From Candidatus Moraniibacteriota bacterium (lineage in GTDB: Bacteria; Patescibacteriota; Minisyncoccia; Moranbacterales; UBA1568): DNA of 64,000 nucleotides. Below the pieces are notes generated by a model, which saw only the letters and a list, made by a program, of their open reading frames with translations, had not been told where the DNA came from and searched no databases. The translations under genes and the position numbers were made by a program. Location of the stretch: contig JBAQEZ010000003.1 in assembly GCA_049287005.1 (NCBI GenBank), positions 329,745-393,744 of the forward strand. The letters run 5' to 3'. Of the stretch, positions 6,368-61,950 are shown piece by piece. Position 1 is the stretch's first letter, and each line of letters starts with the position of its first letter.

Positions 6368-6673
6368 ATGGCACTTGATCAAGAAGCACTGAAAAAAGAA
6401 TTGATTGAAGTTTTTCATCTGGAAGACGTTCCGGCAAGCAAGCAAGAGGAATTACTGTCCAAAGTAGGAGAGGCGTTGCTCAAGCGGATTTTTCTAGAAA
6501 CCATGGAAAAGATGGGCGATGCGAACGTGACAGAATATGAAGCATTGTTAGACAAGGGAGCCAAACAGGAAGAACTCGAAGCATTTTTTGAAAAGAAGAT
6601 TCCAGGGTATACTGTCTTTGTACGTGGTGTTGTCACGCGATTCAAGGAAGAGATGGCAGAGGGCTTGGTTTAA
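6368..6673 (+). CDS. small hypothetical protein (101 aa)
   Basis: ORF in operon context between the large proteins and the ATPase; acidic and helical in composition. Confidence 0.4.
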   Translation: MALDQEALKKELIEVFHLEDVPASKQEELLSKVGEALLKRIFLETMEKMGDANVTEYEALLDKGAKQEELEAFFEKKIPGYTVFVRGVVTRFKEEMAEGLV

Positions 6674-6707
6674 ACATTTTTTCTCGCAGCGGCGAGCAGC
6701 ACATATT

Positions 6708-7142
6708 ATGTCAGAAGAAAAAATTGAGGGAGGGGTAGAGAGCGGGAAAATGAGTGAAGATGGTTCCGAAAAACAGCCGGGGGATGAAGGAACATTGGAA
6801 ATCTTTCCGGCGCAAGAAAAGGCAGTATCTGCCGAAGGGGAGTCAGAGCGGCTCGAAGGAAAATATAACGAGATTCTTGCGAAAGTGGCGCCTCAGACCG
6901 CGACGAGCGGCCAGTTATCTGATCAGGATGCCATGCTGGATGCCAAGAGTATCAGCGCTACGGTTGATGAAGAAAGCAAGATTCAGAAGCTGCTTGATCT
7001 GGCATCATCCAAGGGGGTTGTCTATGCAGTCAAGGTGGCTCGATCTCTTCAGGATTATTACGCGTTGGATCGGATGCACGACGAGTTGGCGGATAAATTG
7101 TACGCAGGGCTTTTGGCGAAAGGCCTTATCACGAAAGAATAA
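6708..7142 (+). CDS. small hypothetical protein (144 aa)
   Basis: Start reassigned to the internal ATG at 6708 (MSEEKIEGG...) because the 6588 start overlaps the upstream gene. Followed by a GC hairpin CGGGATC-CGC-GATCCCG at about 7176-7192. Confidence 0.4.
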   Translation: MSEEKIEGGVESGKMSEDGSEKQPGDEGTLEIFPAQEKAVSAEGESERLEGKYNEILAKVAPQTATSGQLSDQDAMLDAKSISATVDEESKIQKLLDLASSKGVVYAVKVARSLQDYYALDRMHDELADKLYAGLLAKGLITKE

Positions 7143-7287
7143 AAGGAACCATTTGTTTCATTCGTGTCGCCCGCCGGATCGGGATCCGCGATCCCGCCAA
7201 GGCGGTGGCGCGCAATGCTCTATTTTTTAATTTTAAAATTCAGACATTGTTGAGAAATGAGCAAGTGAGCGTTGGAAATTTTCATCT

Positions 7288-9783
7288 ATGGGAGGACTCG
7301 ATTTTAATAGTATTCTCATGCCATTGGCATGGATTTTCGCCTCCGTGGCGATCGTCAGCGGAGCATATCTGGTCATCCGTAGTTTTTTGCGTTTCCGTTT
7401 TCAAGTGAACCAATCGATTAATATGGATTTGGAAATGATTCGGGTGACACGGAAAGAAGCTCCCGAGGGAGGCAATCAGCAACAGCCGCCGGGCGCGGAA
7501 GCGTGGAAAGAAGAGATCTTGGCTATGGAGCAGCTCCTTTCGTCTCTGACGATGCTCAAGCCCAAGGGAGGCTTTCTGAAGCGATTATTTTTTGATACGC
7601 CGACTATCGTTTTTGAGATTGCGAATCCGTCCTTGAGTGAAGAAATATTTTTTTACCTTTCGGTACCGAAGCGTTTTCGTGAAAACGCGGAAAAACAGGT
7701 GCATAGTTTTTTCCCTCACGCGGTGATTGAAAAAGTTCCTGATTATACTGTTTTCGCTCCGCAAAGCCACACTGCCGTAGCGGTATTGGGACTGGCGCAT
7801 GGACACGCTCTCCCGTTGCGCACCTATCGGACCGTGGACGTCGATCCGCTCAATGAGATTTCCAACGCGCTCAGTAAATTGAATGCGATCGAGGAAGGAG
7901 CCGCTATTCAGATTTTGTTGGCGAGGTCGAATTCTCACTGGCGCGGAGAGGGAAAACATATCGCCCAGAGAATGCAAGAAGGAAAACGGTTGAAGGATGC
8001 AAGAAATCAATCGGTTTTACGTGAAGCCTCTGCTACTTTGGGAAAGGGGATGCTGAGAACATTGACGAGCGGGAAGAATAAAAGCAGCCCAGAGGAAACC
8101 AAACAAGTGAGTCTGACTCCTGAAGAGCAAGAGCTGGTGAAATCTATCGATGAGAAGGCTAACAAGGGGGCGTTTCGTGTGAATATACGTCTTATCGCAT
8201 CGGGAGCGACAGAGGAGCGAGCAGAAGAGATTCTCGGGCACATGGAAAATGCTTTTGGGCAATTCGAAAATCCGGAAGTGAACAATTTTCGTATCAAAAG
8301 ACGTTATAAAGAAAAACGGACCGTGTACGATTTCATTTTCCGCAATTTTGACGATGAAACGGAGATGATCCTGACCGTCGAGGAGCTGGCCAGCATTTTC
8401 CATTTCCCGATTTCTACGACAGCAACGCCGAAAATCAAATGGCTCAAAGCCGGAGCGGCTCCGCCGCCGGTCAATATCCCGCCGGAAGGGCTGCTGCTCG
8501 GCTATAATGATTATCGCGGGGTGAAAACGGATATTCGCATCACGGAGAATGATCGACGACGGCATATGTACGTCATCGGTCAGACGGGCGTGGGCAAATC
8601 CGTCTTTCTGCAAGAAATGGCCAAGAAGGACGCGGCGGCCGGCAAAGGTTTCTGCTTCATCGATCCGCATGGCGATGCCATCGAGGATATTCTGACGGCT
8701 ATTCCCAAAGAACGCGCGGAGGACGTAATCCTGTTTGATCCCTCCGATACGGAACGCCCGATCGGACTCAATATGCTCGAGTATGATCCTGCGCATCCGG
8801 AACAGAAAACCTTCGTCATCAACGAGATGATCGGCATTTTCGACCAGCTGTACGATTTGAAAGCGACGGGAGGGCCGATGTTCGAGCAGTATATGCGCAA
8901 CGCCATGCTCCTGATCATGGAGGATCCGGAGAGCGGATCGACGCTGATGGAGATTTCCAGGGTGCTGGCCGATGAGGAGTTCCGCAGATACAAGCTGTCC
9001 AAATGCAACAATCCGATCGCTTATGATTTCTGGACGAAAGAAGCGGAAAAGGCCGGCGGGGAAGCGGCTCTGGCGAACATGGTGCCGTATATCACCTCCA
9101 AGCTCACCACCTTCATCAGCAACGATATGATGCGGCCGATCATCGCCCAGCAGAAGAGCACGCTCAATTTCCGCGAGATCATGGACGGCAAGAAAATCCT
9201 GCTCGTCAATCTTTCCAAGGGCAAGATCGGTGAGATCAACGCGCGCCTGCTCGGCATGGTCATCGTGGGGAAGATCCTGATGGCGGCCCTGTCGCGGGTG
9301 GATACGCCGGAAGACGAGCGTACGGATTTCTATCTCTATATGGATGAATTCCAGAACGTCACCACCAATTCTATCGCGCAGATCCTTTCGGAAGCGCGCA
9401 AGTATCGGCTGGTGCTGACGATGGCGCATCAGTTCATCGCGCAGCTGAAGGAAGAGATCGCCAAGGCGGTCTTCGGAAACGTCGGATCGCTGGTCTCGTT
9501 CCGGGTCGGATCGGAAGACGGCGAGTTTTTAGAAAAGCAGTTCCTCCCGGTGTTTACGGCGCGTGATCTCATCAATGTGGATAACCGCAACTGTTTCGTG
9601 AAGCTGCTCATGAACAACGAACTGACCAAGCCGTTCAATATGAAAACCTATCCGCCGACGCACGGCAATCAGGAGGTGGCCAACGCCCTCAAGGAGCTCT
9701 CCCGCCTGCGCTATGGCCGCGATGCCACCATCGTCAACCGCGAGATCATGAGTCGCATCAAGCTGGCGGAAAAACCAGTCTAG
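7288..9783 (+). CDS. type IV secretion coupling protein-like P-loop ATPase (VirD4/TraG/TraD/TrwB family), membrane anchored
   Basis: N-terminal TM helix (PLAWIFASVAIVSGAYLVI). Walker A GQTGVGKS, followed by FIDPHGD as in the TrwB/VirD4 IDPKGD motif. Walker B-like FYLYMDEF. C-terminal TMAHQFIAQL matches the motif C/Q-L signature of coupling proteins. Confidence 0.75.
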   Translation: MGGLDFNSILMPLAWIFASVAIVSGAYLVIRSFLRFRFQVNQSINMDLEMIRVTRKEAPEGGNQQQPPGAEAWKEEILAMEQLLSSLTMLKPKGGFLKRLFFDTPTIVFEIANPSLSEEIFFYLSVPKRFRENAEKQVHSFFPHAVIEKVPDYTVFAPQSHTAVAVLGLAHGHALPLRTYRTVDVDPLNEISNALSKLNAIEEGAAIQILLARSNSHWRGEGKHIAQRMQEGKRLKDARNQSVLREASATLGKGMLRTLTSGKNKSSPEETKQVSLTPEEQELVKSIDEKANKGAFRVNIRLIASGATEERAEEILGHMENAFGQFENPEVNNFRIKRRYKEKRTVYDFIFRNFDDETEMILTVEELASIFHFPISTTATPKIKWLKAGAAPPPVNIPPEGLLLGYNDYRGVKTDIRITENDRRRHMYVIGQTGVGKSVFLQEMAKKDAAAGKGFCFIDPHGDAIEDILTAIPKERAEDVILFDPSDTERPIGLNMLEYDPAHPEQKTFVINEMIGIFDQLYDLKATGGPMFEQYMRNAMLLIMEDPESGSTLMEISRVLADEEFRRYKLSKCNNPIAYDFWTKEAEKAGGEAALANMVPYITSKLTTFISNDMMRPIIAQQKSTLNFREIMDGKKILLVNLSKGKIGEINARLLGMVIVGKILMAALSRVDTPEDERTDFYLYMDEFQNVTTNSIAQILSEARKYRLVLTMAHQFIAQLKEEIAKAVFGNVGSLVSFRVGSEDGEFLEKQFLPVFTARDLINVDNRNCFVKLLMNNELTKPFNMKTYPPTHGNQEVANALKELSRLRYGRDATIVNREIMSRIKLAEKPV

Positions 9784-9874
9784 AAAAAGAGCAGGGATCG
9801 AGAGTTATGAATCAGGAAAGAGACTCTTTTGATTTAAGGAAAGCCTTGCTTCGGGGATTTATGGGCGGCTCCCC

Positions 9875-9903
9875 TTGACTTTCTATGTCTTTTGGAGTAT
9901 AAT
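9875..9903 (+). promoter_or_regulatory. sigma70-like promoter: TTGACT, 17-nt spacer, TATAAT
   Basis: Near-consensus -35 at 9875-9880 and perfect -10 at 9898-9903, about 60 nt upstream of the ATG at 9965, which has a GAGGAG RBS. Confidence 0.6.
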
Positions 9904-9964
9904 TGCGATTTGTACCTTTTGAAACAACCGGCAATGGTGCCGATTCCTCCGAGGAGAATGCGAT

Positions 9965-10357
9965 ATGTTGAAAAACTGGCTGAAGGGTCTGATAATCGGT
10001 CTGATGATCATGGGTTGCACGCTGATTCTGATGTTTGCCAGTCTGCTCATCATTTGGATGGCGGGCGGCAATGAACTTTCTCTGCGCCAGCTTCTCATGG
10101 GCGTGCTGCTGAGCTGGTTCCTGGAGGTTGTGATCCTGATACCGCTCGGATCACTGCCGAGAGAGGTGAACAGGAACGCATTCCTGGCGCGTGCCATCTT
10201 CGTGTGGCTCCCGGTGTCCGGCGGGTGGTTCCTGATGCTCCAGGGGATGCCTCTCTGGGTTTTCCCCGCAGGCATGCTGATCTCCTCCACCTGCGTCGGT
10301 TACAACATGATGGTGACGCACGAGAAGAAAAAACAAGCGGCCAGCAGACGTCCCTAG
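9965..10357 (+). CDS. small integral membrane protein (130 aa), hypothetical
   Basis: Four predicted hydrophobic helices; strong promoter and RBS upstream. Confidence 0.5.
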   Translation: MLKNWLKGLIIGLMIMGCTLILMFASLLIIWMAGGNELSLRQLLMGVLLSWFLEVVILIPLGSLPREVNRNAFLARAIFVWLPVSGGWFLMLQGMPLWVFPAGMLISSTCVGYNMMVTHEKKKQAASRRP

Positions 10358-10539
10358 AGACGGAAAGAGATATGCCAAGAGCAGTGAGGGTAAATCCCGA
10401 TAGCTGCTCTTTGTTTTTTCTTTAAAAAGCTTATTACCAAACCTTTCATTATTGACTTATAACTATCAAAGAAGAGACCAAAGTTTTTGAGGAAACCGCC
10501 TCGAAAAATTGCTTTGCTATTGCGGTGGACGTATCTGCG

Positions 10540-13074
10540 CTATTGTTCCAGATTGAGTTTGAATGAGAGAAGGGAATGGGCGGTTGTGACGAGGGCTTCG
10601 CTGGTTTTCTCATTGACGGTAATGGTTTGGGCGTCAGCCAGCGTTTCGGAGAAGTACTGGGCGATGAGCGCGCCGTCTTGGTTCCAGACGAGGATGCGCT
10701 TATTGTCCGCGTCGAGAGCGTAGATGTTGGCTAAGTCTGGATTGGTGAAGAGGCTGGTGACAGAGAGCGGGGTGTTGGGAGACTCGAGGTTTTTCACGAA
10801 ACGGCCGCGAAAAACTGCCGAGACGGTTGTTCGGTTTTGTGCCAGGAAAATGGTCTCATGGATGGCCATTTTTGCACTGTCTTCGATAGCCAGCGTGTCC
10901 TTGAGCCAAGGGGATCCTGTACCAAAGCCGCCTTCTGCGCGTGGGAAACGGTAGATCTGATCCGTGGTTTCATCGAGGACATAGAGGTACGTGAGATAGG
11001 TGCCGATATCCTCTACGCGGGCGTCTGCGGGAAGTGCCAGCGTGTTCTCTGTGAACGTGTGGCTGATGGGACTCCAGGAAAACAGTGCGTTCGTATCGGT
11101 ATAGACAAAAATAAGACGCAAATCATCCATGGGAGAGGCGAATTTGATTGCTCCTTTTCCGGGCGGCAAGGGGTATTGTTTTTCGTCATCGGTACTGAGA
11201 ATATACGCAGAGGTTATGAGGTAAATCTCATCACTGAGTACGACGGACGCAATCACGGAATCTGGTACCGTGGCGATGGTAATAGGCGCGTTGGCTAAGG
11301 CATGAGCGTTTTTTTCGTCCTCGAGAGGGAAGACGGATGTTTCGCTGGGCGCTTGCGGGGTTTCTGCGATCGGCGTCGGACTGTTCTTCGTCGAGATATA
11401 TCGTGCCAGCAGGAGGCTGGTCACCAAAACAGCAGCAGCCAATAACCACAGCATGAGGGTGCGCTTTTCGTATCGGGTGCCGAGCTTTTTGAAGGAACGG
11501 AAGGAATGATTGAACAGATCCCGTGTGGTGCGCATGCCCTTTTCCCAGAGCGCACGCAGGATGAGCCAGCCTGCGTGAAATGTCTTCTGGAGAGCAGCAA
11601 AGGAAGCGGTGACTCGTTTCTTCCGGAATGTTTGAGGAGCAGGCGCTACGACAGAAATGTGCGTTATGGGGGGAGGAACACTGTTTTTTTGATAAAACGC
11701 AGCCAGTTTGTCTCTCATAAAAGGCGGAATGACTTCATCCTCGTCCGCAGCGATACGCGCGGACGCGTTGTGGACAAGCGCTTCCGTGACGGCAGGAGCA
11801 GGGAGAGTACTCTCTATTTTTTTTGCGGAGGACGGCTGTGAGAGCGGAGTCGGGATATGTGCCGTCTGCAGCAGGTTGTCCGGGCGAGTGTTTTCGGCAG
11901 TCGCTTGTGATTTTTTCGGCAGCCGGAGGGTAGCTATTTTTGACGCTGAAGCGACAATACCGTTGCGCAGTTGTTTGCGGAGAAAACGCGTCGTTTTCCG
12001 TGTTACGACGACACTCTGTCTCGAGAGAGCATACAAGAAGAGGAGACTTTGTTTTTTTCCTTTGCGGAGCAGTTTCCCTTGGGAAATGAAAAATGAGCCG
12101 AGGGCATGGGACGAGTCTTGCAACGAGAGTTTGGTGCGTTCGAGGAAGGGGTATCCTTGCGTGTGCCTGGGCGTGTCTCCTTGGACATAGATGTGGCCAG
12201 TTTTGGAATCGGTATATTCTTCCTCAGCATTATTACTCGCATGTTCCGTGGGTTGGCCGGCGGCTTGCTCTGTTGTGGGGCGTGGAACGAAAGCTTGCCC
12301 GCTGAAAACATTCGCGGTCGTTTCCACGGCCTTTTTTGACTCTTTGTGTGGCAGAGGAAGAGGCAGGCCTTCTTTTATATCAACGACGAGAGAACCGCCC
12401 ATATCGAGTTCGTTGATCAAGGCGGTACGGAGAAATTGAGCGAAACGTTCCGTATCCATACGGACAGCATTCTTTTCGAGGTCTTCCATGGGGAGTATGT
12501 CGAAAAGCTCCGGTGAGGTAAGAATAATTTTGTCTTGGGCCATGAGGCGACCGCTTGAGACCTCGACGAATGTTTTGATAGGGTGAATGTTGGATTCTTC
12601 GGAGGCCAGGCCGCTGCTGATTTCGGAAAAATTGTCACCACGCAAGAGCAGAATCTCCGCTTTGCCGGTAACGGAGAAATGGAGGTTATTTTTTTCGAGC
12701 ACGCCCAGCGCGCCGTGCAATTTGCCGAGCCACGCGATATTGCCGTGTTTGACGAGTTCGGCCAAAGCCAGATTGATCTTATGAAGCGCCGCTTCGAAAC
12801 TTTCGATGGAACCACGCCGGGGGTTGCTGAAGTATTCTTTTTTGGCGACAGAAGCGAGAAAATTGATGATGTAGGCCGAATCCTCGCTGTTTTCGGCAAT
12901 TTCAAAAACACCGATCAAAGAGCCGAGGGAGCTCCTGGTGACATTTTCGTCGCTGTAATTGAAAACCTTGACGAATGGTTCGATGGCACGACCGTTCGCC
13001 ACAAGGATTTCCGTTATAACTTTTTCTAATTCGATAGTCGGCCTGATTTTTTCCGGGCGTTTTTTCTCCAACAT
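10540..13074 (-). CDS. large hypothetical protein (844 aa): cytoplasmic N-domain, single TM (MLWLLAAAVLVTSLLLARYI), C-terminal beta-propeller-like repeats
   Basis: Long minus-strand ORF. Repeated YxLD/IYRF-type beta-strand repeats after the TM. Overlapping plus-strand ORFs are antisense shadows. Confidence 0.5.
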   Translation of the reverse strand: MLEKKRPEKIRPTIELEKVITEILVANGRAIEPFVKVFNYSDENVTRSSLGSLIGVFEIAENSEDSAYIINFLASVAKKEYFSNPRRGSIESFEAALHKINLALAELVKHGNIAWLGKLHGALGVLEKNNLHFSVTGKAEILLLRGDNFSEISSGLASEESNIHPIKTFVEVSSGRLMAQDKIILTSPELFDILPMEDLEKNAVRMDTERFAQFLRTALINELDMGGSLVVDIKEGLPLPLPHKESKKAVETTANVFSGQAFVPRPTTEQAAGQPTEHASNNAEEEYTDSKTGHIYVQGDTPRHTQGYPFLERTKLSLQDSSHALGSFFISQGKLLRKGKKQSLLFLYALSRQSVVVTRKTTRFLRKQLRNGIVASASKIATLRLPKKSQATAENTRPDNLLQTAHIPTPLSQPSSAKKIESTLPAPAVTEALVHNASARIAADEDEVIPPFMRDKLAAFYQKNSVPPPITHISVVAPAPQTFRKKRVTASFAALQKTFHAGWLILRALWEKGMRTTRDLFNHSFRSFKKLGTRYEKRTLMLWLLAAAVLVTSLLLARYISTKNSPTPIAETPQAPSETSVFPLEDEKNAHALANAPITIATVPDSVIASVVLSDEIYLITSAYILSTDDEKQYPLPPGKGAIKFASPMDDLRLIFVYTDTNALFSWSPISHTFTENTLALPADARVEDIGTYLTYLYVLDETTDQIYRFPRAEGGFGTGSPWLKDTLAIEDSAKMAIHETIFLAQNRTTVSAVFRGRFVKNLESPNTPLSVTSLFTNPDLANIYALDADNKRILVWNQDGALIAQYFSETLADAQTITVNEKTSEALVTTAHSLLSFKLNLEQ

Positions 13075-17855: not shown

Positions 17856-18387
17856 CTCTCTTTCTAGCTTATAATTAAGATTGTGAAAGTGCTGCTTGCG
17901 TTGAAGCCTGACTAGCGCTTATCAGGGCTATCTTTTATATCATTGATAAGCCGATCGACCTCCTGTCTTTTCATACTACGTCTTTGAAAAATGGCTGTCA
18001 ACTGGACAAAAGAGGTGTTTTTCGGCCTAATGCAGGGGTTTTTAGCCTGATAAAGATGCACGGCGCGTACCGCTCCCGTTTCGTGCGTGTGACGAACCGC
18101 AGGAAAATAAAAATGGAAAAATCAAAATGGAAAATGACCATGCAAAATAAATAAAAAGAAGCTTCCTTCCTGAAAAAAAATAATATTGCGAGAGAACGAC
18201 GTTGCTCCGCCTTGGCATGCGCAATATGGTTATGAAATCACTGGAAATACTTTTGATATTTTTCTGTATGGTGATAGGGAAGTTGAGATATTGTATTGTT
18301 TGTTTCGGTCATTTCATTTTTGATCCGAGAATAATTTTTCTCAAAGAAATTATTTGCTTGTCTACTCTTGACAAATATTTTTTCTCT

Positions 18388-18414
18388 TTGCATTTTGCAA
18401 AAAAAGAGTATAAT
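18388..18414 (+). promoter_or_regulatory. candidate promoter inside the AT-rich island (TTGCAT, 15 nt, TATAAT)
   Basis: Perfect -10 TATAAT at 18409-18414 with an imperfect -35. The spacer is short, so this is weak support only. Confidence 0.3.
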
Positions 18415-18564
18415 AAAAATGTACAGGAAATTTTTTCTGTATCACGCACAAAAAAATAAATATTTGTTGTGTGAAACAAAAAAATAATTCCATATTCTTT
18501 CTCTCTGTTCCATAAACATATGTGACATGAGAAGGGGGAAGTGGTGTAGAAGGAGGTGAATATT

Positions 18565-18687
18565 ATGGCAGCCAAGAAAAAAGCAGCAGCAAAGAAGAAA
18601 GTGGCAAAAAAGGTAACCAAGAAGAAAGTCGCCAAGAAGGCAGTAAAGAAGGTAACCAAGAGAAAAGCTACTAAGAAGCGCAAATAG
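18565..18687 (+). CDS. 40-aa lysine-rich basic protein, histone H1/Hc1-like or ribosome-associated basic peptide
   Basis: Strong RBS AGGAGGTG 7 nt before the ATG. Translation is MAAKKKAAAKKKVAKKVTKKKVAKKAVKKVTKRKATKKRK. A bidirectional terminator follows. The ORF is absent from the ORF track only because it is short. Confidence 0.6.
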   Translation: MAAKKKAAAKKKVAKKVTKKKVAKKAVKKVTKRKATKKRK

Positions 18688-26556: not shown

Positions 26557-27885
26557 ATGAAGAGGATACCGGAACAGCAACGAAAGCCTTTGAGCAGAAT
26601 ATTGGTTATCGGTAGCGGTGGCCGTGAACATGCCATCGCGTGGAAACTGGCGCAAAGCCCAGAAGTGGAAGCGGTGTATGTCGCGTCCGGCAATGTTGGA
26701 ACGGCAAGGGAGCCGAAGGTACAGAATATTCCCATTACCGACATTGCGCTCCTCGCGGATTTTGCAGCGCAGAACAGTATCGATGTGACGGTGGTAGGAC
26801 CTGAAGCGCCATTGGTAGCGGGCATCGTGGATCTGTTTCGCGACCGTGGTCTGAAGATTTTTGGTCCGACGCAAGCAGCGGCGCAATTGGAATCCTCCAA
26901 GACTTTCGCGAAGCGTTTCATGAACCGTTGTCATATACCGACTGCGGACTACTGCGAATTCGCTTCCGCGGCATTGGCACATACCTACCTTGTCAGTCGG
27001 TCTCTTGACGATCTGCCGATTGTGGTCAAGGCCGATTGGTTGGCTGCGGGCAAAGGGGTGGTAGTCGCCAAGAGCCACCGTGAGGCGCACGACGCAGTCG
27101 ACATGCTTTTTGCCGCTACGACTGTGCCGGATCAGGAGAAACGGATCATCATCGAAAACTGCATTGCCGGCACGGAGGCGAGTTACATCGTCATGGTTGA
27201 TGGTCGGAATGTTTTGGCATTGGTGACGAGCCAGGATCATAAACGCCTCCTCGACGACAACAGGGGATTGAATACCGGCGGTATGGGAGCGATTTCTCCT
27301 GCGCCTATCATCACGTCTGCTATGAATACGCGCGTCATGCATGAAATTATCATGCCTGCGGTGCACAGAATGGCCGACGAAGGTATCCCGTACACCGGAT
27401 TTCTCTACGCGGGGCTGATGATCGATGCCGAGAACAACCCATATGTACTCGAGTTCAACTGTCGCCTTGGCGATCCGGAAACGGAAGTGATCCTGATGCG
27501 CTTACGGAGCGATCTGTATCCGCTCATCAGGCACGGCGCGAATGGCACGCTGGATTTGGCGAATGCGGAGTGGGATGATCGCGTAGCGCTCGGCGTCGTG
27601 CTGGCAGCTGCCGGTTATCCAGATAAACCGCGCAAGGGGGATCCAATTTCCGGGTTGCCGCGGGAAACCCCTGACTGCAAAGTCTTCCATGCCGGTACCG
27701 CCGAAGCGGGCGACAAGCTCGTTACGGCGGGCGGGCGCGTGTTGTGCGTGACGGTGCTTGGCGACGATATCGGCGATGCGCGGAGGCGAGCTTACGAAGC
27801 GGTGAAAACCGTTCACTTCGCAGGGGTGCAATACCGGAAAGACATCGGCAAATGTGCTTTGGCGGCAGCCGCTGATGTCAACTAA
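26557..27885 (+). CDS. purD: phosphoribosylamine--glycine ligase
   Basis: VLVIGSGGREHAIAWKLAQS N-terminus and an ATP-grasp core (GFLYAGLMI, EFNCRLGDPE). Confidence 0.9.
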   Translation: MKRIPEQQRKPLSRILVIGSGGREHAIAWKLAQSPEVEAVYVASGNVGTAREPKVQNIPITDIALLADFAAQNSIDVTVVGPEAPLVAGIVDLFRDRGLKIFGPTQAAAQLESSKTFAKRFMNRCHIPTADYCEFASAALAHTYLVSRSLDDLPIVVKADWLAAGKGVVVAKSHREAHDAVDMLFAATTVPDQEKRIIIENCIAGTEASYIVMVDGRNVLALVTSQDHKRLLDDNRGLNTGGMGAISPAPIITSAMNTRVMHEIIMPAVHRMADEGIPYTGFLYAGLMIDAENNPYVLEFNCRLGDPETEVILMRLRSDLYPLIRHGANGTLDLANAEWDDRVALGVVLAAAGYPDKPRKGDPISGLPRETPDCKVFHAGTAEAGDKLVTAGGRVLCVTVLGDDIGDARRRAYEAVKTVHFAGVQYRKDIGKCALAAAADVN

Positions 27886-34449: not shown

Positions 34450-34839
34450 ATGATAAGAATTGCCGGAATTAACCTTCCAGATAACAAGAGAATAGAGGTC
34501 GCGCTGACCTATATTTATGGCATTGGTCTTTCTACAAGCCAAAAGATTCTCGAGGAGTTGACGATCGATGTCGATACTCGCGCGAAAGATATCACCGCTG
34601 AAGACGCGAACCGTTTGCGTGAAGTGATCGAGAAAAAGTTTCGCGTCGAAGGAGAGCTCCGGCATGTCGTCAAAAACAATATCAAGCGTTTGAAAGAAAT
34701 CGGCTGTTATCGCGGGACTCGCCATCAGAAGGGACTTCCTTCCCGTGGGCAGCGGACCAAGACCAATACGCGGACAGTGCGCGGTAACACCCGTAAGACG
34801 ATGGGTAGCGGACGGAAGAAATCATCTGACAAGACATAG
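34450..34839 (+). CDS. rpsM: 30S ribosomal protein S13
   Basis: [26 protein letters not shown] matches S13. Confidence 0.95.
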
Positions 34840-35418: not shown

Positions 35419-36051
35419 ATGCCAAACAATATTGATTCCAAATGCAAACTCTGTCGCCGCGCCGGGGAAAAACTCTTTCTCAAGGGAGATCGTTGTTTGT
35501 CACCGAAATGTGCCATGGTACGCCGTCCGTATGCCCCGGGCATCCATGGTCACACTCCATCCCGTGGCGGTAGCGAATTCGGCAGACAGCTTGCGATGAA
35601 GCAGAAAATCAAGCGTCTCTACGGCGTGATGGAGCGTCAGTTCCGTCATCATTTTGATGAGGTACGCAAGACTCCTGGTATCACCGGCGATCAGCTCATC
35701 TCTCGTTTGGAACGACGGTTGGACAACGTGGTGTACCGGCTGGGATTCGCTGCTTCTCGCGCTCAGGCCAAGCAGCTCGTGAGTCACAAGATGTTTTCAG
35801 TGAATGGCACGCGTGTCAATATTCCTTCCTACGAAATCCGCGTCAACGATGTCATTACGCTGAAGGACAATAAGAAGGAAAAACAATTCTTCAAGAATCA
35901 GGAAGAAATTTTGAAAAATAAGAAAGATGTTCCTCATTGGTTGGCACTCGATGCCGAGAAGCAGACGGGGAGAGTGCTCTCTATGCCGGCTCGGGAAGAT
36001 GTCGGTGTCCGAGTGGACGCACAGATGGTTGTCGAATATTACTCGAAATAA
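35419..36051 (+). CDS. rpsD: 30S ribosomal protein S4
   Basis: N-terminal zinc ribbon CKLCRR...CLSPKC and the S4 domain. Confidence 0.95.
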   Translation: MPNNIDSKCKLCRRAGEKLFLKGDRCLSPKCAMVRRPYAPGIHGHTPSRGGSEFGRQLAMKQKIKRLYGVMERQFRHHFDEVRKTPGITGDQLISRLERRLDNVVYRLGFAASRAQAKQLVSHKMFSVNGTRVNIPSYEIRVNDVITLKDNKKEKQFFKNQEEILKNKKDVPHWLALDAEKQTGRVLSMPAREDVGVRVDAQMVVEYYSK

Positions 36052-36135: not shown

Positions 36136-36927
36136 ATGCAGATCATCACTTCTCCTCAAAAGCCGAAATACACGGCATTGGGAACGAATCATGGTAAGTT
36201 TGAAATCCTGGGCTGTTACCCGGGGTACGGTACGACCGTCGGGAACGCGATGCGTCGCGTGTTGCTTTCCTCTTTGGATGGCGCGGCTGCCAAGTCCGTG
36301 AAGATCAGGGGCGTGTCTCATGAGTTTTCTACTATTCCGGGCGTAATGGAGGATGTCGTGCAGATCATTCTCAATCTCAAGCAAGTCCGTTTCCGTCTTC
36401 ATGGAGATGATACGGTGAAAATAACTCTCAAGAGCAAGGGAGAAGGCGTCGTGACGGCAGGTGATTTCAAGACTTCGTCCGATGTCGAAGTAGTGAATCC
36501 GGATCAGGTTATCGCCACGCTTACCGACAAGAAAACGGAATTCGAAATGGAAGTTGAAGTGGATAAGGGCGTCGGTTATGTGCCGGTAGAAAGCCGTGAA
36601 CACGAAGATCGTGAAATCAGCGTGATCGCCATCGATTCCATCTATACTCCGGTCAAGCGCGTGAACTATGAGATCGAGAACATGCGCGTCGGCAAGCGAA
36701 CGGATTATGATAAGGTGACGCTGGAAGTGGTGACGGATGGCAGTATTTCGCCTGTGGAGGCGTTTGAAAAAAGCGTGGCTATTCTCGTCTCCCAATTTTC
36801 TTCCCTGACTGAAGTGGAGGGAGAAATTCCCGAAATGAAAGAAGAGAGCAGAACGGAAGAGGTCAAAGAGAAAAAAACCAAGAAGGTAACCAAGAAAAAA
36901 GCTGCCAAAGAAGAATCTGCTGAATAA
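36136..36927 (+). CDS. rpoA: DNA-directed RNA polymerase subunit alpha, N-terminal domain only (263 aa), Lys-rich tail
   Basis: Alpha-NTD dimerisation and assembly domain is recognisable. The protein ends in EEVKEKKTKKVTKKKAAKEESAE, with no visible alpha-CTD helix-hairpin-helix. Confidence 0.85.
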   Translation: MQIITSPQKPKYTALGTNHGKFEILGCYPGYGTTVGNAMRRVLLSSLDGAAAKSVKIRGVSHEFSTIPGVMEDVVQIILNLKQVRFRLHGDDTVKITLKSKGEGVVTAGDFKTSSDVEVVNPDQVIATLTDKKTEFEMEVEVDKGVGYVPVESREHEDREISVIAIDSIYTPVKRVNYEIENMRVGKRTDYDKVTLEVVTDGSISPVEAFEKSVAILVSQFSSLTEVEGEIPEMKEESRTEEVKEKKTKKVTKKKAAKEESAE

Positions 36928-36949
36928 TACTACCGAATAAAGAGAGTAT

Positions 36950-37315
36950 ATGAAACACAGACACGCGGGCCGCGTTTTGAGTCGCGGACGAAACCAACGT
37001 CGAGCATTGATCAAAACCTTATTGGGGAGCTTGATCATGCATGAACGGATTACGACGACTGAGGCCAAGGCTAAAGAAATCAAAAATTTCATCGATCAGA
37101 TTGTCAACAAGGCAAAAGTGGGAAGAGCTGATCCGATTCGGCGCGTCGCCATCATCCGCGAGTTTCAGGGCATGATTCCGGAAATGGCATCCAAGAAGCT
37201 GCTCGGTGAGTTCGGCGTACGTTTTGAAGAGCGGGTCAGCGGGTACGTGCGTATCGTGAAGCTCGAACGACGCAAGAGCGATGCCGCAGAAATGGCAATT
37301 ATTGAGTTTGTATAA
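36950..37315 (+). CDS. rplQ: 50S ribosomal protein L17
   Basis: MKHRHAGRVLSRGRNQRRALIKTL matches L17. Confidence 0.95.
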   Translation: MKHRHAGRVLSRGRNQRRALIKTLLGSLIMHERITTTEAKAKEIKNFIDQIVNKAKVGRADPIRRVAIIREFQGMIPEMASKKLLGEFGVRFEERVSGYVRIVKLERRKSDAAEMAIIEFV

Positions 37316-37324
37316 ACGAAACGT

Positions 37325-37741
37325 ATGGCACAGAATAAAAGAACGATGATTGATCGGAAATATCATCTTTTTGATGCAAAAGATAAGGTGCTGGGTCGCT
37401 TGGCGACACAGCTCGCGCGTTTGCTTATGGGCAAACACAAGGTGAGCTACGCTCCGCATATTGACGGGGGCGATTTCGTGGTGATTCTCAATTCTGATAG
37501 TGTCGTCGTCACCGGCAACAAGACGAAGGACAAGATGTATCATCGTTTCAGCGGCTATCCAGGTGGTATCACTTCCATCAATTTTGAGGATCAGGTGAAA
37601 AAAGATTCTCGCAAAGTCATCTGGCAAGCGGTATACAATATGCTTCCCAAGAATGCGCTGCGCGGCAGGATGATGCGGAGACTGCTGATCAATAAGGACG
37701 GCGAGCACAAGCAGAAAGTTATTCACGTGACTCACGAATAA
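37325..37741 (+). CDS. rplM: 50S ribosomal protein L13
   Basis: KYHLFDAKDKVLGRLATQLARLLMGKHK matches L13. Confidence 0.95.
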   Translation: MAQNKRTMIDRKYHLFDAKDKVLGRLATQLARLLMGKHKVSYAPHIDGGDFVVILNSDSVVVTGNKTKDKMYHRFSGYPGGITSINFEDQVKKDSRKVIWQAVYNMLPKNALRGRMMRRLLINKDGEHKQKVIHVTHE

Positions 37742-37748
37742 ACGAATT

Positions 37749-38285
37749 ATGGCAACCAAGAAAGAAACAACCAAGAAGGTGACGGCGAAGAAAGAGATCG
37801 TCAAGGATGACGAAGCTCCAAAAGCGGTCAAGAAAGCTCCTGCAAAAAAGAAAGTTGCAACTGTTTCTGCCGCTGCGTCCGTCGAGGCTGTTGAGGAACG
37901 CTATGTGTACGCTGTCGGTCGTCGCAAGACGGCTGTCGCGCAAGTACGCTTGTATCCGAGCCCGAGCGCAGAGGTGATCGTCAATAAGAAGCCTATCCGT
38001 GAATATTTCGGTACCGCGGCTCTCGAAGCTGTCGCCCTCTCGCCGCTCAAGGTGACTGGTTTGGAAACCGCTTTCAGAGTGTCAGTGGTGGTGCGTGGTG
38101 GCGGACTGCATGGTCAGACCGGGGCTATCAAGCTCGGTATCGCTCGTTGTCTCATCAAGCACGATATCCTGCTTCGCCCTGTTCTCAAAGCACAGGGATT
38201 CCTCACTCGTGATGCCCGTGCGGTAGAACGCAAGAAACCGGGTCTGAAGAAGGCGCGCCGCGCTCCACAATGGGCCAAGCGTTAA
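37749..38285 (+). CDS. rpsI: 30S ribosomal protein S9 with a ~45-aa Lys-rich N-terminal extension
   Basis: C-terminal ...GLKKARRAPQWAKR and the S9 core; N-terminus KKETTKKVTAKKEIVKDDEAPKAVKKAPAKKK. Confidence 0.9.
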   Translation: MATKKETTKKVTAKKEIVKDDEAPKAVKKAPAKKKVATVSAAASVEAVEERYVYAVGRRKTAVAQVRLYPSPSAEVIVNKKPIREYFGTAALEAVALSPLKVTGLETAFRVSVVVRGGGLHGQTGAIKLGIARCLIKHDILLRPVLKAQGFLTRDARAVERKKPGLKKARRAPQWAKR

Positions 38286-56393: not shown

Positions 56394-57944
56394 TTACTCC
56401 CATTCGATCGTTGCGGGGGGCTTGGTGTTGTAATCGAAGATGCAACGAGAAATGCCATGCGTGCTCGTTGCTATTGCCCGGATTTCTTCTTCGATATCCC
56501 GCGGCAGGTAGTAGGGATCAGCTGTCATGAAATCGACTGACACAACCGGACGAACAGCGATGACCGGGCCATAGACGCGGCTGTCACCTTTTTGGCCTGT
56601 GGTATTGATTCCCCACAATCCGACGACGAGCTGTGAAATCATTTCCAGGTGGCCGGTGCGTTCGAGAATGAGACTGGTACCCTCTTCTTTTTCAGCGACA
56701 ATGTCAAGGCGCTGGAGAGTGACCGGAATACCAATCACCCTTGGGATATTACCCGGTCCTGGAAAGGGCGGACGATTGTAGACGCTTTCTGGGAGACCAG
56801 CCTCCCGTCCCAAGAGACGTACTTGATGCTTGAAAAGATGTGCCAAAGGAGTGAGCTCTTTAAAGCCGAGCTCTTTCCATGGGATACCCTTGTTGTGATG
56901 GGTTTTGATGTGGACTCCACCCCGGTGTCCCGATTCAATTTCATCCGCGATGTTGGTACCATCGCCCATCGTCACTCCTTCCTTGAACCGCTGGCGGAAG
57001 GCGACGATTTGTCGAGTGTAAATGCCCTGGAATATCTTGCGCTTCTCTTCGCCATTGATGGTGTGAGCGAAAGCTTCATCCACTTCATCTCTTGCATCCA
57101 AAAGGTGCCAGGGCAAGCCGAGATGTTTGGCGATGCTCTTCTGAAAAGCAACATCACCCCTTCGCTGGTTGCCACAGTCCACGGTGACCAAGTGCGTGCG
57201 GTCTTTCAGTTCCTTTGGGACATGGGCGGCCATGGTCGAAGAGTCAACGCCGGCGCTGAAGGGAATGACGAGCTGGCCGTCACCAACGATCTCAATGATA
57301 CGCTCGCGGATAGCATCGCCTTCTCGCGATTTTTGTATGTTGGCTTGGCATCCGGCGATCTTCGTCAGAAAGTTGACGATCATCTTTTCTCCCCACTTCG
57401 TGTGAGTTACCTCGGGATGGAATTGGACTGCCTCATGCGTACCATCGCCCATGGCCGCGAGCACATCCTGACCTGTGTAGGCATAAGCGGTAAAGCCAGG
57501 CGGGACTTTTACGACACGATCCCCGTGATTGGACCAGACCACTTGCTCCGATGGCATTTCGCTGAGGAGGCTACCGTGATGAATGATACGCAAGTTGGTT
57601 CTGCCGTGTTCAGGCTGGCCGGGTTTGACCTCTCCTCCGAGGAGATAAGCCATAGCTTGCATGCCGAAGCAGATTCCGAAAATTGGCATGAGCCGTCCAT
57701 CTTTCCGCTTGAGGTCAAAGAGTTCTTTGGGTGGCAGAGGAGCGTCTTTGTCATCCACGCTCATTGCGCCGCCGGAGAGAATGACGGTTTGAACGGGATT
57801 TTGGTTGAGCCAATTCATGAGGCCTTCCAGTCCTATGACCGTAGAACGAAAACCATGCTTTTCAACGACTTCCTTGATCTTGAATGTAGTTTGCGACCGG
57901 CATTGGACGATTGCGACTTGCGGGAGATTCGAGGCTGTAAGCAT
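56394..57944 (-). CDS. guaA: GMP synthase (glutamine-hydrolysing)
   Basis: GATase domain (GICFGMQ), ATP-PPase SAGVDSS, and the C-terminal KPPATIEWE signature. Confidence 0.95.
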   Translation of the reverse strand: MLTASNLPQVAIVQCRSQTTFKIKEVVEKHGFRSTVIGLEGLMNWLNQNPVQTVILSGGAMSVDDKDAPLPPKELFDLKRKDGRLMPIFGICFGMQAMAYLLGGEVKPGQPEHGRTNLRIIHHGSLLSEMPSEQVVWSNHGDRVVKVPPGFTAYAYTGQDVLAAMGDGTHEAVQFHPEVTHTKWGEKMIVNFLTKIAGCQANIQKSREGDAIRERIIEIVGDGQLVIPFSAGVDSSTMAAHVPKELKDRTHLVTVDCGNQRRGDVAFQKSIAKHLGLPWHLLDARDEVDEAFAHTINGEEKRKIFQGIYTRQIVAFRQRFKEGVTMGDGTNIADEIESGHRGGVHIKTHHNKGIPWKELGFKELTPLAHLFKHQVRLLGREAGLPESVYNRPPFPGPGNIPRVIGIPVTLQRLDIVAEKEEGTSLILERTGHLEMISQLVVGLWGINTTGQKGDSRVYGPVIAVRPVVSVDFMTADPYYLPRDIEEEIRAIATSTHGISRCIFDYNTKPPATIEWE

Positions 57945-58928: not shown

Positions 58929-59199
58929 CTCGGTGGATTTTCATAGCTCCGCCAATGAACGCCGCATCCTAGAGTTGCTTGCCGCTTGCCGCTCGAATCA
59001 TGGGTTGCCAGCGGTTTTTCTTTTTCTTGCCTCTTTTGAGGCCTTTTGATAGACTATGAGACCTGCTTTGGCAGGCGAGGCGCCCTTTAAAAACCTGTAT
59101 TTTAACGAAGAGCCAGCTAGATTTCAGCCAGTGGAGGTTGTTTTTGGCCTTCACAGCCATATTCGCAGTTTCGTGCAGTTCAACCAGAGGAGAGTCACC

Positions 59200-61950
59200 A
59201 TGGCTATCACTCGTATTGTTGTCGCGCCGCAGAAGGAGTCGGGGGAGTCTCCGGATGATATCTTTTGCATCATCAATCTGGAAACAGCAATCCCTCTCTC
59301 GAATGTTTCCGTACTACATTCCTTGTTTGCTGACGGTATCACGGCAGATGTCGTGGAAATGATGCCGGCAGGAAACTTCAAGGAAGTCATGTACCACAAC
59401 GGTGTCATCGATCCCAAGCAGCAGGCGATCATTGAGCTCTGCGCCAAGCGGGGCGTCGCCGTTGAAGCGGTCAAGGTGGGCTATCGGTACTACGGCAAGA
59501 GCATGAACGACCTGTATGTGAACAAGGTCGTGCATATCGCTTTCACCGCAGAACCGCAGCTCACAACGCTCAAGCCCAGCGGCGTCCGTCAGGAGATGCA
59601 ATATTTCGATCTCTGCGTGATGGAAGATACAACGCTGACACAGCTGAGCCAGGATCGCGAGTTGCATCTTTCGCTCTCGCAGATGAAGCAGCTGGTACAC
59701 TTCCAGAAACAGCTCGGCCTCCTCGCGGTATCTGATGTCTATCTGGAAACATTCGCTGCCTTCTGGAGCGAGCACTGCTTTCACACGTTGTGGAAGGCAC
59801 TCGGCCTGTTCAAGATGCTCAAGGCGGCGACCGCCCGTATCGGCAATCCCAATTTGCTGTCGGCTTTTGTTGACAACGCCGGCGTGTGGGATTTCTACGA
59901 TGGGCTCGCCCTCCTGTTCAAGCTCGAGACGCACAACTCACCGACGCAGTCCGAGCCCTTCGGTGGGCAGATGACGAAATTGGGCGGGGTCATTCGTGAC
60001 ATTCTCGAGAATGGCCTCGGCGCCAAATCTATCGGCAACCTGGAGCTCACCGTCATCGGCGAGCTTGTGCGCAAGCGCTATTCGGAATTGCAGGGCGCTA
60101 TGTCGGCATCCGTGATGGCTCGGGAGACCGTGCGGGCGATCGCCAGTTATGGCAACCCGATGGGCATTCCGATGCTGTTGGCACGCATGATGAGCCACCC
60201 GGACTTCAGCGGCAAACCATTCGCACTCGGCGGCACCGTCGGTATCACGACTCGGGCCGCCGCGGAAAAGGGCGTGCCTCATGAGGGCGACCTGGTGGTG
60301 CTCGTCGGCGGACGGACAGGCAACGATGGGTTGCACGGAGCGACGATCAGCTCCGGTGGCATTACCGAACATACCGATAGCGGTGACAAAACGCATGTGC
60401 AAATCGGCCTCCCATTCACGGAACAGAAGATGGTGCGGGCCGGAGTTGCACTGCGTGACGCTGGCTGTTGCAGCGCGCGCAATGATTTCGGCGCGGCCGG
60501 CATCGTGTCGTGTTTCGGTGAAATGGGCAAGGGTACAGACGGGGTGGGCGGCATTCTCGTCAATCTCGCCTTGGTGCCGCTGAAGTGTGCCGGCATGGCG
60601 AATTGGCAGATCGCTCTCTCTGAAAGTCAGGAACGCTTCGGTCACGCCGTGAAACCGGAGAAATGGGCAGAGGCACGGGCTATCTACGAGCAGTACGGTC
60701 TGGAAGCGACGGTCATCGGCGTCTTTACCAAGAGCCAGCGTTTTCAGATGTTCTATGACGCTGGCGTCATATCGGTGCCGGGGATGGAGCTGTCGGGCGA
60801 AATTTGCCTGGATGTTCCGTATGCGTTTTTCGACGAATGTCCCTTGCCCGAAGTCGTTGTGCAGGAACCGGTACGAGCGATGAAATCGTTACTCTGCCCG
60901 AAATATCCGAAAATCACGCCTGCCAATGTGAGAGAGATGGGTCTGCATGTCGTCGGGCATTTCGATGTCTGCGATCAATCCTCCGCGATAACGCAGTATG
61001 ACGCATCGGTCCAGGGAATTACCTTCCAAGGGCCGCTCTATGGCAAGGATTACAACGTCGCTACGTCGCTGGCGGTTCTCCGTCCGGTGTTCGGAAAACC
61101 TTTCGGGGCTACGGTGAGTATCAGTTTTTCGCCGTGGCATTTCGAAGCGGATCCGGTCAGTGCTGCTGTCAATACCATGATGGACGTCCTAGTGACCCAA
61201 GTGGTGGCCGGCGTGCAGGTGCAGGACATTGCGCTGTCGGATAATTTCTACACCGATGGTGCTGATCCGGTATCGCTCTGGTATCTGCGTGAACAGGTTA
61301 AGGCGCTGACAGGCCTTTCTCTCATCACCGGAACGCCGTTCATCACGGGGAAGGACAGTTCGTCGGGGCGCGGGACATTCGGTGGTGTTACTGTCAAAGT
61401 GCCGCCGAGCGTCGCCATTACCGCATTGGGCAAAGTGCCCGATGTGCACCGGCTCGTGCCTCATCAATGGCAAGGGGCGGGGAACAAGCTTGTTGTTTTG
61501 GGGCCGCGCGCTGTGCTTCTCGACGGGTCGATCCTCTCTTCGTCACTGGGTATTGCCGGAACGACTTTGGACCGCTTCCCTGTTGCAGAGGCGCGGACCT
61601 ACCTGGAAGAGCTCGACGCATCGGCTCGGCAAGGCGTCTTCGCATCGGCTGTGCCTATCAACCGCGGCGGAGTATTCCTGCGTTTGTTCGAAGGCATCGA
61701 GGCTTCGGGGCTGGGATTCGAGGCGGAGGTGTGTGCTGAACTCTTTCCGGAAAGTATGGGATGTGTTCTGGTGGAAGTTTCACCGGAGGATGCGGAATGG
61801 CTTCTTCAGGAATCCGATTTTGATACGCTCGTGGTGGGAACCATCGTGTCGGATCGGAAGCTATCGGTTCAAGGGGTGGAGTTTGATCTCAATTCGCTCC
61901 GCCAGGTATGGCAGGGCACATTCAAGGAGGCACTCTATGGCAACGAGTAG
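59200..61950 (+). CDS. purL: phosphoribosylformylglycinamidine synthase subunit PurL (with PurS-like N-terminal segment)
   Basis: ETHNSPTQSEPFGG (PurL ETHNHPS motif) and duplicated AIR-synthase-like domains. Start at ATG 59200 with a GAGGAGAG RBS; the listed 59056 start gives a spurious N-extension. Confidence 0.85.
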   Translation: MAITRIVVAPQKESGESPDDIFCIINLETAIPLSNVSVLHSLFADGITADVVEMMPAGNFKEVMYHNGVIDPKQQAIIELCAKRGVAVEAVKVGYRYYGKSMNDLYVNKVVHIAFTAEPQLTTLKPSGVRQEMQYFDLCVMEDTTLTQLSQDRELHLSLSQMKQLVHFQKQLGLLAVSDVYLETFAAFWSEHCFHTLWKALGLFKMLKAATARIGNPNLLSAFVDNAGVWDFYDGLALLFKLETHNSPTQSEPFGGQMTKLGGVIRDILENGLGAKSIGNLELTVIGELVRKRYSELQGAMSASVMARETVRAIASYGNPMGIPMLLARMMSHPDFSGKPFALGGTVGITTRAAAEKGVPHEGDLVVLVGGRTGNDGLHGATISSGGITEHTDSGDKTHVQIGLPFTEQKMVRAGVALRDAGCCSARNDFGAAGIVSCFGEMGKGTDGVGGILVNLALVPLKCAGMANWQIALSESQERFGHAVKPEKWAEARAIYEQYGLEATVIGVFTKSQRFQMFYDAGVISVPGMELSGEICLDVPYAFFDECPLPEVVVQEPVRAMKSLLCPKYPKITPANVREMGLHVVGHFDVCDQSSAITQYDASVQGITFQGPLYGKDYNVATSLAVLRPVFGKPFGATVSISFSPWHFEADPVSAAVNTMMDVLVTQVVAGVQVQDIALSDNFYTDGADPVSLWYLREQVKALTGLSLITGTPFITGKDSSSGRGTFGGVTVKVPPSVAITALGKVPDVHRLVPHQWQGAGNKLVVLGPRAVLLDGSILSSSLGIAGTTLDRFPVAEARTYLEELDASARQGVFASAVPINRGGVFLRLFEGIEASGLGFEAEVCAELFPESMGCVLVEVSPEDAEWLLQESDFDTLVVGTIVSDRKLSVQGVEFDLNSLRQVWQGTFKEALYGNE

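Follow-up and report, generated by a model that had tools for sequence, protein, structure and literature searches.

An alpha subunit that ends after its N-terminal domain

The subject of this study is rpoA, which encodes RNA polymerase's alpha subunit, as found in a 64-kb stretch of a metagenome-assembled genome (MAG) of Candidatus Moraniibacteriota; we refer to this whole stretch as the window. In textbook accounts, UP-element recognition and activation of class I and class II both center on the C-terminal domain of alpha (CTD). The window carries one detectable rpoA gene, and that gene encodes the N-terminal domain (NTD) without the CTD. The gene order rpsM-rpsK-rpsD-rpoA-rplQ is intact around it, with every neighbor assigned by Pfam, and the coordinates of these genes and of the other features considered below are collected in Table 1. 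The rpoA open reading frame (ORF) closes with TAA at positions 36925 to 36927, and the ATG of rplQ lies 22 nt further on, not 23 nt as stated in a first-pass annotation of this DNA.

Table 1 Features of the window and, in the last rows, copies of a palindrome in related loci (positions within the locus named).
Feature	Position	Strand	Basis or remark
rpoA, 263 aa, alpha without CTD	36136-36927	+	ORF; PF01000 and PF01193 only
Alpha NTD, residues 1-224, dimerization and beta/beta' assembly platform	36136-36807	+	alignment to solved alphas
Acidic linker, residues 225-243, TEVEGEIPEMKEESRTEEV, net charge -6	36808-36864	+	homologous to the NTD-CTD linker in CTD-bearing relatives
Lys motif, residues 244-258, KEKKTKKVTKKKAAK, net charge +8	36865-36909	+	clade consensus E-KK-[AP]-KK-V-x-KKKK
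Short acidic C-terminal end, residues 259-263, EESAE, charge -3, plus TAA stop	36910-36927	+	sequence
rpoA-rplQ spacer, 22 nt, purine-rich AAAGAGAG before ATG	36928-36949		sequence
rpsM	34450-34839	+	ORF and Pfam
rpsK (uS11), 148 aa	34941-35387	+	PF00411 at residues 38-147
rpsD	35419-36051	+	ORF and Pfam
rplQ (bL17)	36950-37315	+	PF01196, E = 7e-26
rplM (uL13)	37325-37741	+	PF00572, E = 7.5e-40
rpsI (uS9), 178 aa	37749-38285	+	PF00380 at residues 57-178, E = 1.6e-40
uS9 Lys/Ala/Val/Thr-rich N-terminal extension, residues 1-50	37749-37898	+	outside every model
rpmE (bL31), Lys-rich C-terminal extension of ~35 aa	20956-21249	-	PF01197 at residues 19-80 of translated stretch
40-aa poly-Lys ORF, MAAKKKAAAKKKVAKKVTKKKVAKKAVKKVTKRKATKKRK	18565-18684	+	gene status uncertain
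purD (GARS)	26557-27885		purine gene
guaA (GMP synthase)	56394-57944		purine gene
purL-like FGAM synthase	59056-61950		purine gene
Palindrome in rpoA tail	L001 3727-3756, L007 3787-3816
Palindrome in rpsI N-terminal extension	L002 4851-4880, L033 4675-4704
Palindrome in rpsK N-terminal extension	L004 1815-1844, L005 1801-1830, L007 1709-1738, L012 64-93, L037 1813-1842

Judged by its NTD, its equivalog scores, and its operon context, the product is a genuine bacterial alpha that lacks the CTD. Pfam placed PF01000 (E = 4e-36) and PF01193 (E = 3e-20) on the protein, and PF03118 was not found in it even at E ≤ 1. Two NCBIfam rpoA equivalog models were matched above their cutoffs (NF003519, 292.3 bits against 277; TIGR02027, 274.4 bits against 227.8), although the matches cover only model positions ~5 to 245 of 320, i.e., the N-terminal part; six further PRK05182 submodels score the protein below cutoff because its C-terminal third is missing. 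The NTD aligns with residues ~18 to 235 of Escherichia coli alpha and with every solved bacterial alpha (best E = 6e-62), and its GNAMRRVLLSS segment matches the same motif in the solved proteins. The Arg pair R40/R41, which we take to be the equivalent of the E. coli assembly determinants R44/R45, and 90 other positions are invariant across 44 relatives. Since the NTD is intact, including this Arg pair and the dimerization elements, the subunit should be able to nucleate core assembly. An AlphaFold model of the protein was mediocre (mean pLDDT [predicted local distance difference test score] of 62; the underlying alignment was shallow, with near-identical sequences) and was used only for the end of the last NTD helix, which spans residues 206 to 224, and for disorder in the tail that follows it.

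The first-pass annotation had read this alpha as lacking the helix-hairpin-helix CTD, and Pfam, NCBIfam, and our own CTD hidden Markov model (HMM), applied to all six frames, agree with that reading. The HMM was built with jackhmmer from the E. coli CTD as seed and finds a CTD in 92 of 150 representative alphas. Searched with the --max option against a six-frame translation of the entire 64 kb, it detected no CTD within rpoA or in the rest of the window (best E = 0.62, which is noise) and gave nothing in the spacer between rpoA and rplQ, which is in any case too short for a CTD; nor did it find a CTD outside rpoA in 80 related loci. Alignment with the alphas of related lineages showed that close relatives share the absence, which is therefore a lineage trait. 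Taken together, these results make it very probable that the RNA polymerase of the source organism truly lacks the CTD.

The source is a MAG, and several unrelated representative alphas do look frameshifted, as would be expected if an assembly error or a frameshift had shortened a normal rpoA. However, the same architecture, with conserved stop positions, recurs in more than 100 independent assemblies, rplQ begins almost immediately downstream, and the other frames contain no CTD-like sequence, so that the likelihood of an artifact is negligible. Programmed frameshifting on the A7 run within the Lys motif was considered separately and rejected: the other frames seem, by eye, to stop within ~55 nt, and therefore no hidden domain could be reached in this way.

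A CTD might instead be encoded elsewhere, as a split gene, as a fusion to another protein, or within a second full-length rpoA paralog, as in Francisella. The genome measures at least 767 kb, of which our search covered 64 kb; this leaves room for such an arrangement and weighs to that extent against our own conclusion. A query with the Moranbacteria CTD, in a search that was word-indexed and shallow and did not return the query's own parent protein, gave four short CTD-only proteins as candidates. One of them (P0287) is a contig-edge piece of an ordinary rpoA that begins at contig base 17 and has rplQ, rplM, and rpsI after it, and the remaining three sit on contigs of 1.3 to 2.8 kb. Moreover, no genome gave two rpoA loci in the species-level scan described below, and a free CTD would be untethered to the polymerase. 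On this evidence, we regard a CTD encoded at another site as very unlikely.

Loss of the CTD among relatives and the composition of the tail

The window alpha has the same sequence as P0001, a protein encoded on a 766,823-bp contig of a Candidatus Moraniibacteriota MAG, and none of its 120 closest homologs in a collection of 5.8 billion proteins has a CTD. When each GTDB species was represented by one genome, a scan yielded 80 Moranbacteria loci, among which 65 encode a CTD-less alpha, 14, all more distant, encode a CTD-bearing alpha, and 1 encodes a partial alpha at a contig end. CTD loss is thus an inherited trait of a large Moranbacteria clade and not an artifact. We then placed these loci in a neighbor-joining tree from a concatenation of seven operon proteins (1050 columns after removal of low-complexity extensions, 100 bootstrap replicates). 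The CTD-less clade of the window and its CTD-bearing sisters, L040 and L044, form a group with 100% bootstrap support. A second CTD-less clade, whose alphas have acidic tails (L064 to L067, L072, L074, and L076), is also supported by 100% of replicates and adjoins the CTD-bearing loci L068 and L070. Because the two CTD-less clades were never grouped together (0 of 100 replicates) and each lies near CTD-bearing relatives, the tree indicates that the CTD was lost at least twice independently inside Moranbacteria. Other Patescibacteria have lost it independently as well; Moraniibacteriota and Falkowiibacteriota, members of which are compared below, both belong to the Parcubacteria group of Patescibacteria.

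In the course of this comparison, we noted that MAG records titled "uncultured Bdellovibrionales," "Micavibrio sp.," and "Candidatus Saccharibacteria" (L009, L013, L016 to L019, and many others) carry alpha operons that are 62 to 81% identical to that of the window. These loci nest within Moranbacteria in the tree, and their taxonomic labels look wrong.

The CTD of these CTD-bearing sisters is divergent. In the CTDs of L040 and L044, the positions equivalent to E. coli R265 and G296 are occupied by K and T, and that equivalent to N268 is occupied by K. The Bacillus subtilis counterparts of the first two, R261 and G292, have been reported to be indispensable (PMC4495994). The substitutions suggest that the canonical UP-element-reading function was already decaying before or near the time at which the CTD was lost.

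Beyond the NTD, the window alpha carries a tail (residues 225 to 263) with charge blocks of -6, +8, and -3, for a net charge of -1. The first-pass annotation was correct in calling the tail Lys/Glu rich, but its treatment of the tail as a basic extension does not hold, given this net charge and the two-part makeup of the tail. At the same position, between NTD and CTD, CTD-bearing Moranbacteria carry an unusually long linker (25 to 55 aa) rich in E, V, and A. Since these relatives have the same acidic linker, the tail of the window alpha consists of the ancestral interdomain linker plus a newly acquired Lys motif of 11 to 15 aa at the former site of the CTD. Across the clade of the window, the acidic linker has a median length of 27 aa and a net charge of -7, and the C-terminal end that follows the motif has a median length of 5 aa and a net charge of -2. 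The tail is predicted to be disordered: the model shows no secondary structure after the helix that ends at residue 224, pLDDT is below 50 from residue 233 to the C terminus, and its mean over residues 231 to 263 is below 40.

The motif itself is well conserved. Its strict form, E-KK-[AP]-KK-V-x-KKKK, occurs in 113 of 150 distinct CTD-less tails, with variants in most of the others, and K249, K250, K254, and K255 are at least 90% conserved among 44 relatives. Although its Lys and Val residues are fixed, they are encoded by varying synonymous codons (AAA and AAG are mixed, and Val is written with four codons), which indicates that selection acts on the motif as a peptide and not on the mRNA. 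The notion that the tail is functionless, i.e., a drifting leftover linker in which the Lys run reflects a lineage-wide low-complexity bias or an mRNA constraint just upstream of rplQ, has some observations on its side. The linker ranges from 11 to 42 aa and is highly variable in sequence, some CTD-less relatives manage with tails of 9 to 25 aa that have no basic motif, and a 30-bp palindromic element (described below) is tolerated inside the tails of L001 and L007. However, codon variation at fixed residues speaks against a constraint at the mRNA level, and the motif keeps its place near the C terminus whereas the linker varies. Enrichment of Lys codons driven by AT content was ruled out, as the GC content of the window is ~50% (43 to 58%). 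Finally, other CTD-less clades have independently gained basic patches or AT-hooks, as described in the next section. We therefore consider a functionless tail improbable.

Basic tips in other lineages and a possible role for the tail

For a comparison across lineages, we used the 150 best representatives (clusters at 50% identity) and scored a Lys patch as at least 6 K in 12 residues. Such a patch follows the NTD in 19 of 35 clean CTD-less alphas and in 6 of 91 CTD-bearing alphas (Fisher P = 1.8e-8, a value that is not corrected for phylogeny and is to that extent a point against the reading developed below). Several CTD-less representatives end in KRGRPKK. A search begun from one of these alphas, P0138, returned 120 homologs, several of them named Candidatus Falkowbacteria, and none of the 120 has a CTD. 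In 108 of these Falkowbacteria-type alphas, an acidic linker ends in KK[KR]RGRPKK (for example, KKRGRPKK), and G278, R279, P280, and K282, each at least 90% conserved, are the sole near-invariant columns after the NTD. The Pfam AT_hook model was the top non-alpha motif in this set, with matches in 40 of 120 members that were all under threshold (best E = 0.021). A subthreshold Pfam score is expected for a single 9-residue AT-hook, and our assignment of the motif as an AT-hook is based on the conserved RGRP core and not on the HMM score. The window motif, KEKKTKKVTKKKAAK, has no G-R-P core and so is not an AT-hook (PF02178). Two different basic peptides have thus taken the CTD's place independently, each at the end of a similar tether.

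What might such a tip do? From what is established about alpha, the NTD would still nucleate assembly of alpha2-beta-beta', and a polymerase without the CTD would be unable to read UP elements or to meet activators through CTD surfaces. Promoter strength and regulation would then rest on sigma-DNA contacts, on factors that contact sigma, beta, or beta', and on repressors. A Lys motif on a flexible tether of ~20 to 40 residues, at the former site of the CTD, could provide a minimal and largely sequence-independent electrostatic contact with upstream DNA. Such a contact would partly make up for promoter binding by the CTD but would have neither the specificity of that domain nor its surfaces for activators.

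AT-hooks recognize AT-rich DNA through its minor groove, and the alpha-CTD reads UP elements in the same manner. Because AT-hook and Lys tips have converged on the same kind of tether, a role of the window motif in contacting DNA is a serious possibility, to which we give slightly less than even weight. As an account of all the observations, loss of the CTD together with a linker whose Lys motif serves as a minimal tethered DNA contact is the best explanation that we can offer, and we hold it to be somewhat more probable than its negation. More tentatively still, Patescibacteria may repeatedly have swapped the globular CTD for a minimal linker-borne peptide, a convergent "mini UP-reader" (an AT-hook in Falkowbacteria-type alphas and KKxKKVxKKKK in the clade of the window) that keeps a generic contact with the AT-rich minor groove and drops control by activators; we are inclined to doubt this generalization slightly more than to accept it.

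Several observations weigh against a DNA-contacting tip, or against the evolutionary setting in which we place it. Short or purely acidic tails without any basic motif are found in L064 to L067, L072, L074, and L076, which include a complete genome (CP175956.1), and in L056 and L065; since a whole CTD-less clade does without a basic tip, the tip is at most helpful and not obligatory. The tail as a whole is net negative, at -1 in the window and at a median of -2 in the clade, and the acidic linker could hide the motif or push DNA away. Ribosomal proteins of this lineage commonly carry Lys-rich low-complexity segments, so that RNA or other partners are equally conceivable. As for the tree, monophyly of the window's clade taken alone has only 69% support, in what are simple distance trees on few proteins.

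A related alternative is that the Lys motif serves, as a short linear motif, to bind a ligand other than promoter DNA, such as nascent or ribosomal RNA (for example, in transcription-translation coupling), an acidic lineage-specific transcription factor, or, intramolecularly, the acidic linker itself; in a further version, a blocky polyampholyte could tune the clustering of RNA polymerase on the nucleoid. The segregated charge blocks of the tail would suit this alternative, as would the similar Lys/Ala/Val/Thr-rich segments on the RNA-binding proteins uS9, uS11, and bL31, and conservation at the peptide level shows function but does not name a ligand. On the other hand, the motif sits where a DNA-binding domain used to be, at the end of the same tether, and the tip to which Falkowbacteria-type alphas have converged is a canonical RGRP AT-hook, a motif known above all as a binder of the minor groove of DNA. 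We consider a nonpromoter ligand unlikely, though less so than a tail with no function at all, and continue to favor the tethered DNA contact.

Ribosomal-protein extensions, other features, and comparison with known systems

The first-pass annotation had grouped the alpha tail with an extension on rpsI and with a 40-aa poly-Lys protein as lineage-specific basic extensions on nucleic-acid-binding proteins. One part of this proposal stands: apart from the poly-Lys ORF, only nucleic-acid-binding proteins in the window have Lys-dense patches. Five stretches contain 7 or more Lys in 16 residues, namely, the alpha tail, the uS9 N terminus, the bL31 C terminus, the normally basic bL33, and the poly-Lys ORF. 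The other part does not stand, as the alpha tail and the ribosomal extensions are not one phenomenon. The Lys-rich N-terminal extension of rpsI, put at ~45 aa in that annotation, is indeed present and measures ~50 aa by domain starts (residue 57 in Pfam, where PF00380 is covered from 1 to 121 of 121 positions, and residue 50 in NCBIfam), with 13 K/R and 8 D/E in its ~50 residues. Most uS9 orthologs begin with "MATK" or a near variant, and the extension measures 6 to 71 aa in relatives with and without the alpha-CTD. Similarly, uS11 has an acidic-then-basic N-terminal extension of ~37 aa that is found, at variable length, in CTD-bearing and CTD-less relatives alike. Because the uS9 and uS11 extensions are equally present in CTD-bearing Moranbacteria (L052, L060, and L070), they do not depend on CTD loss. 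For Parcubacteria, ribosomal proteins with Ala/Lys-rich extensions (at the uS19 C terminus) and, for candidate phyla radiation (CPR) bacteria, enlarged uS11 and bL31 have already been published (PMC9297842). Those extensions match uS9, uS11, and bL31 of the window in composition and lineage, although uS9 is not on the published list and the uS9 and uS11 extensions of the window's lineage do not track the state of the alpha-CTD. The ribosomal-protein extensions are therefore a separate, largely known lineage trait and not part of the alpha story.

The poly-Lys ORF consists almost entirely of Lys, Ala, Val, and Thr (MAAKKKAAAKKKVAKKVTKKKVAKK...) and has the heptapeptide KKVTKKK in common with the alpha tail; it gave no Pfam match. 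On the opposite strand, it is overlapped by a 124-aa ORF (18309 to 18683, minus strand) with a hydrophobic N terminus and weak DoxD/DsbB matches. Since the antisense of the poly-Lys ORF forms that hydrophobic N terminus, it is likely that just one of the two ORFs is real.

We also observed a 30-bp palindrome with two hairpins, TCCGCCnnnGGCGGATCCGCCnnnGGCGGA, as an in-frame insert of 10 codons (peptide SA.GGSA.GG) that sits in disordered tails of three different proteins from different genomes of Moranbacteria (Table 1); the same sites in sister species are without it, and it is absent from the 64-kb window. A metagenome scan for the palindrome returned at least 120 stretches, and among the 83 copies analyzed in 80 loci (L082 to L161), 59 lie in phase 0 of long ORFs for many unrelated proteins. 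The insert has the look of a very small mobile palindromic element that coding DNA tolerates, comparable to the Rickettsia palindromic elements but much shorter. The sequence strings of the palindrome were not found in the literature that we searched.

Elsewhere in the window, the three purine-synthesis genes (Table 1) deserve mention because CPR bacteria are, to our knowledge, usually described as unable to make nucleotides. Four very large ORFs (881, 928, 831, and 844 aa) are clustered at positions 822 to 13074. Three of them had no Pfam match, and the third in order (7288 to 9783) weakly matched the type IV secretion coupling proteins TraG/TrwB; the cluster may be a conjugation-like or type IV secretion system island. 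GC skew is positive in all 2-kb bins of the window and the cumulative skew rises monotonically, so the window must lie inside one replichore, with no origin or terminus.

Large, abundant groundwater lineages without the CTD amount to a natural experiment on what this domain is needed for. The coexistence of CTD-bearing, degenerating, acidic-tail, Lys-motif, and AT-hook forms offers a ready comparative series, useful for asking whether upstream DNA contacts can be replaced by a short basic peptide on a tether, for predicting the absence of CTD-dependent activators in CTD-less organisms, and for the design of minimal RNA polymerases. If the idea of a mini UP-reader is true, it would show how cells with few transcription factors come to do without a domain that neither E. 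coli nor B. subtilis can lose. There is also a practical caution for annotation: an rpoA of ~260 aa in Patescibacteria is complete and should not be taken for a truncated gene.

Among known DNA-binding peptides, the AT-hook (HMGA, PF02178) is short, disordered, and basic, and the KKRGRPKK tip of Falkowbacteria-type alphas is like it; the window motif is not an AT-hook, and its binding to DNA is putative. Lys-rich DNA-binding tails such as the C-terminal tail of histone H1 are peptides of the same kind. Mycobacterial HupB and topoisomerase I also have Lys-rich DNA-binding tails. In overall architecture, the window alpha resembles archaeal Rpo3 (subunit D) and eukaryotic Rpb3/AC40, homologs of the alpha NTD (PF01193/PF01000) that form an assembly platform and have no CTD. 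The likeness is architectural only: the archaeal subunit D model NF001988 gave a weak match (E = 1e-5), and by cutoffs and operon the protein in the window is a true bacterial alpha.

The absence of the CTD in this group is, in its bare form, not entirely new. A single sentence in a paper from 2021 states that CTD loss is also present in Parcubacteria (PMC8321222); at group level, this phenomenon is identical to the one seen in the window alpha. The main text of the reference given there (Nelson and Stegen, 2015; PMC4508563) does not contain the terms "polymerase," "rpoA," or "CTD." Beyond that one sentence, the literature that we searched held nothing on CTD-less alpha in Patescibacteria, its distribution, repeated losses, the retained linker, Lys tails, or AT-hooks on alpha, and the evolutionary pattern and the replacement motifs thus appear to be undescribed.

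The alpha-CTD is essential in E. coli and B. subtilis, in which a truncated alpha is not viable as the sole alpha (PMC4495994). In the engineered truncations, E. coli alpha(1-235) and B. subtilis RpoA-del, the NTD assembles core and supports basal transcription, and UP-element and CTD-dependent activation are lost (PMC8321222, PMC4495994). The window alpha is like these proteins in being reduced to the NTD; it differs in that its CTD-less state is natural and inherited across clades and in that the linker is kept, with a conserved terminal Lys motif. Natural loss of the CTD with retention of the NTD has been described for Hodgkinia, Tremblaya, and Euglena chloroplasts (PMC8321222, citing Sheveleva et al., 2002), and in this respect the window alpha is the same. 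Those genomes are extremely reduced, whereas the contig of the window's lineage is at least 767 kb and those of relatives are 0.6 to 1.3 Mb; the genome is thus not of organelle-like size, and the window itself has purD, a purL-like gene, and guaA. In contrast to the losses in endosymbionts and plastids, that seen in the group of the window recurs within one candidate phylum, beside CTD-bearing sisters, and comes with a replacement motif.

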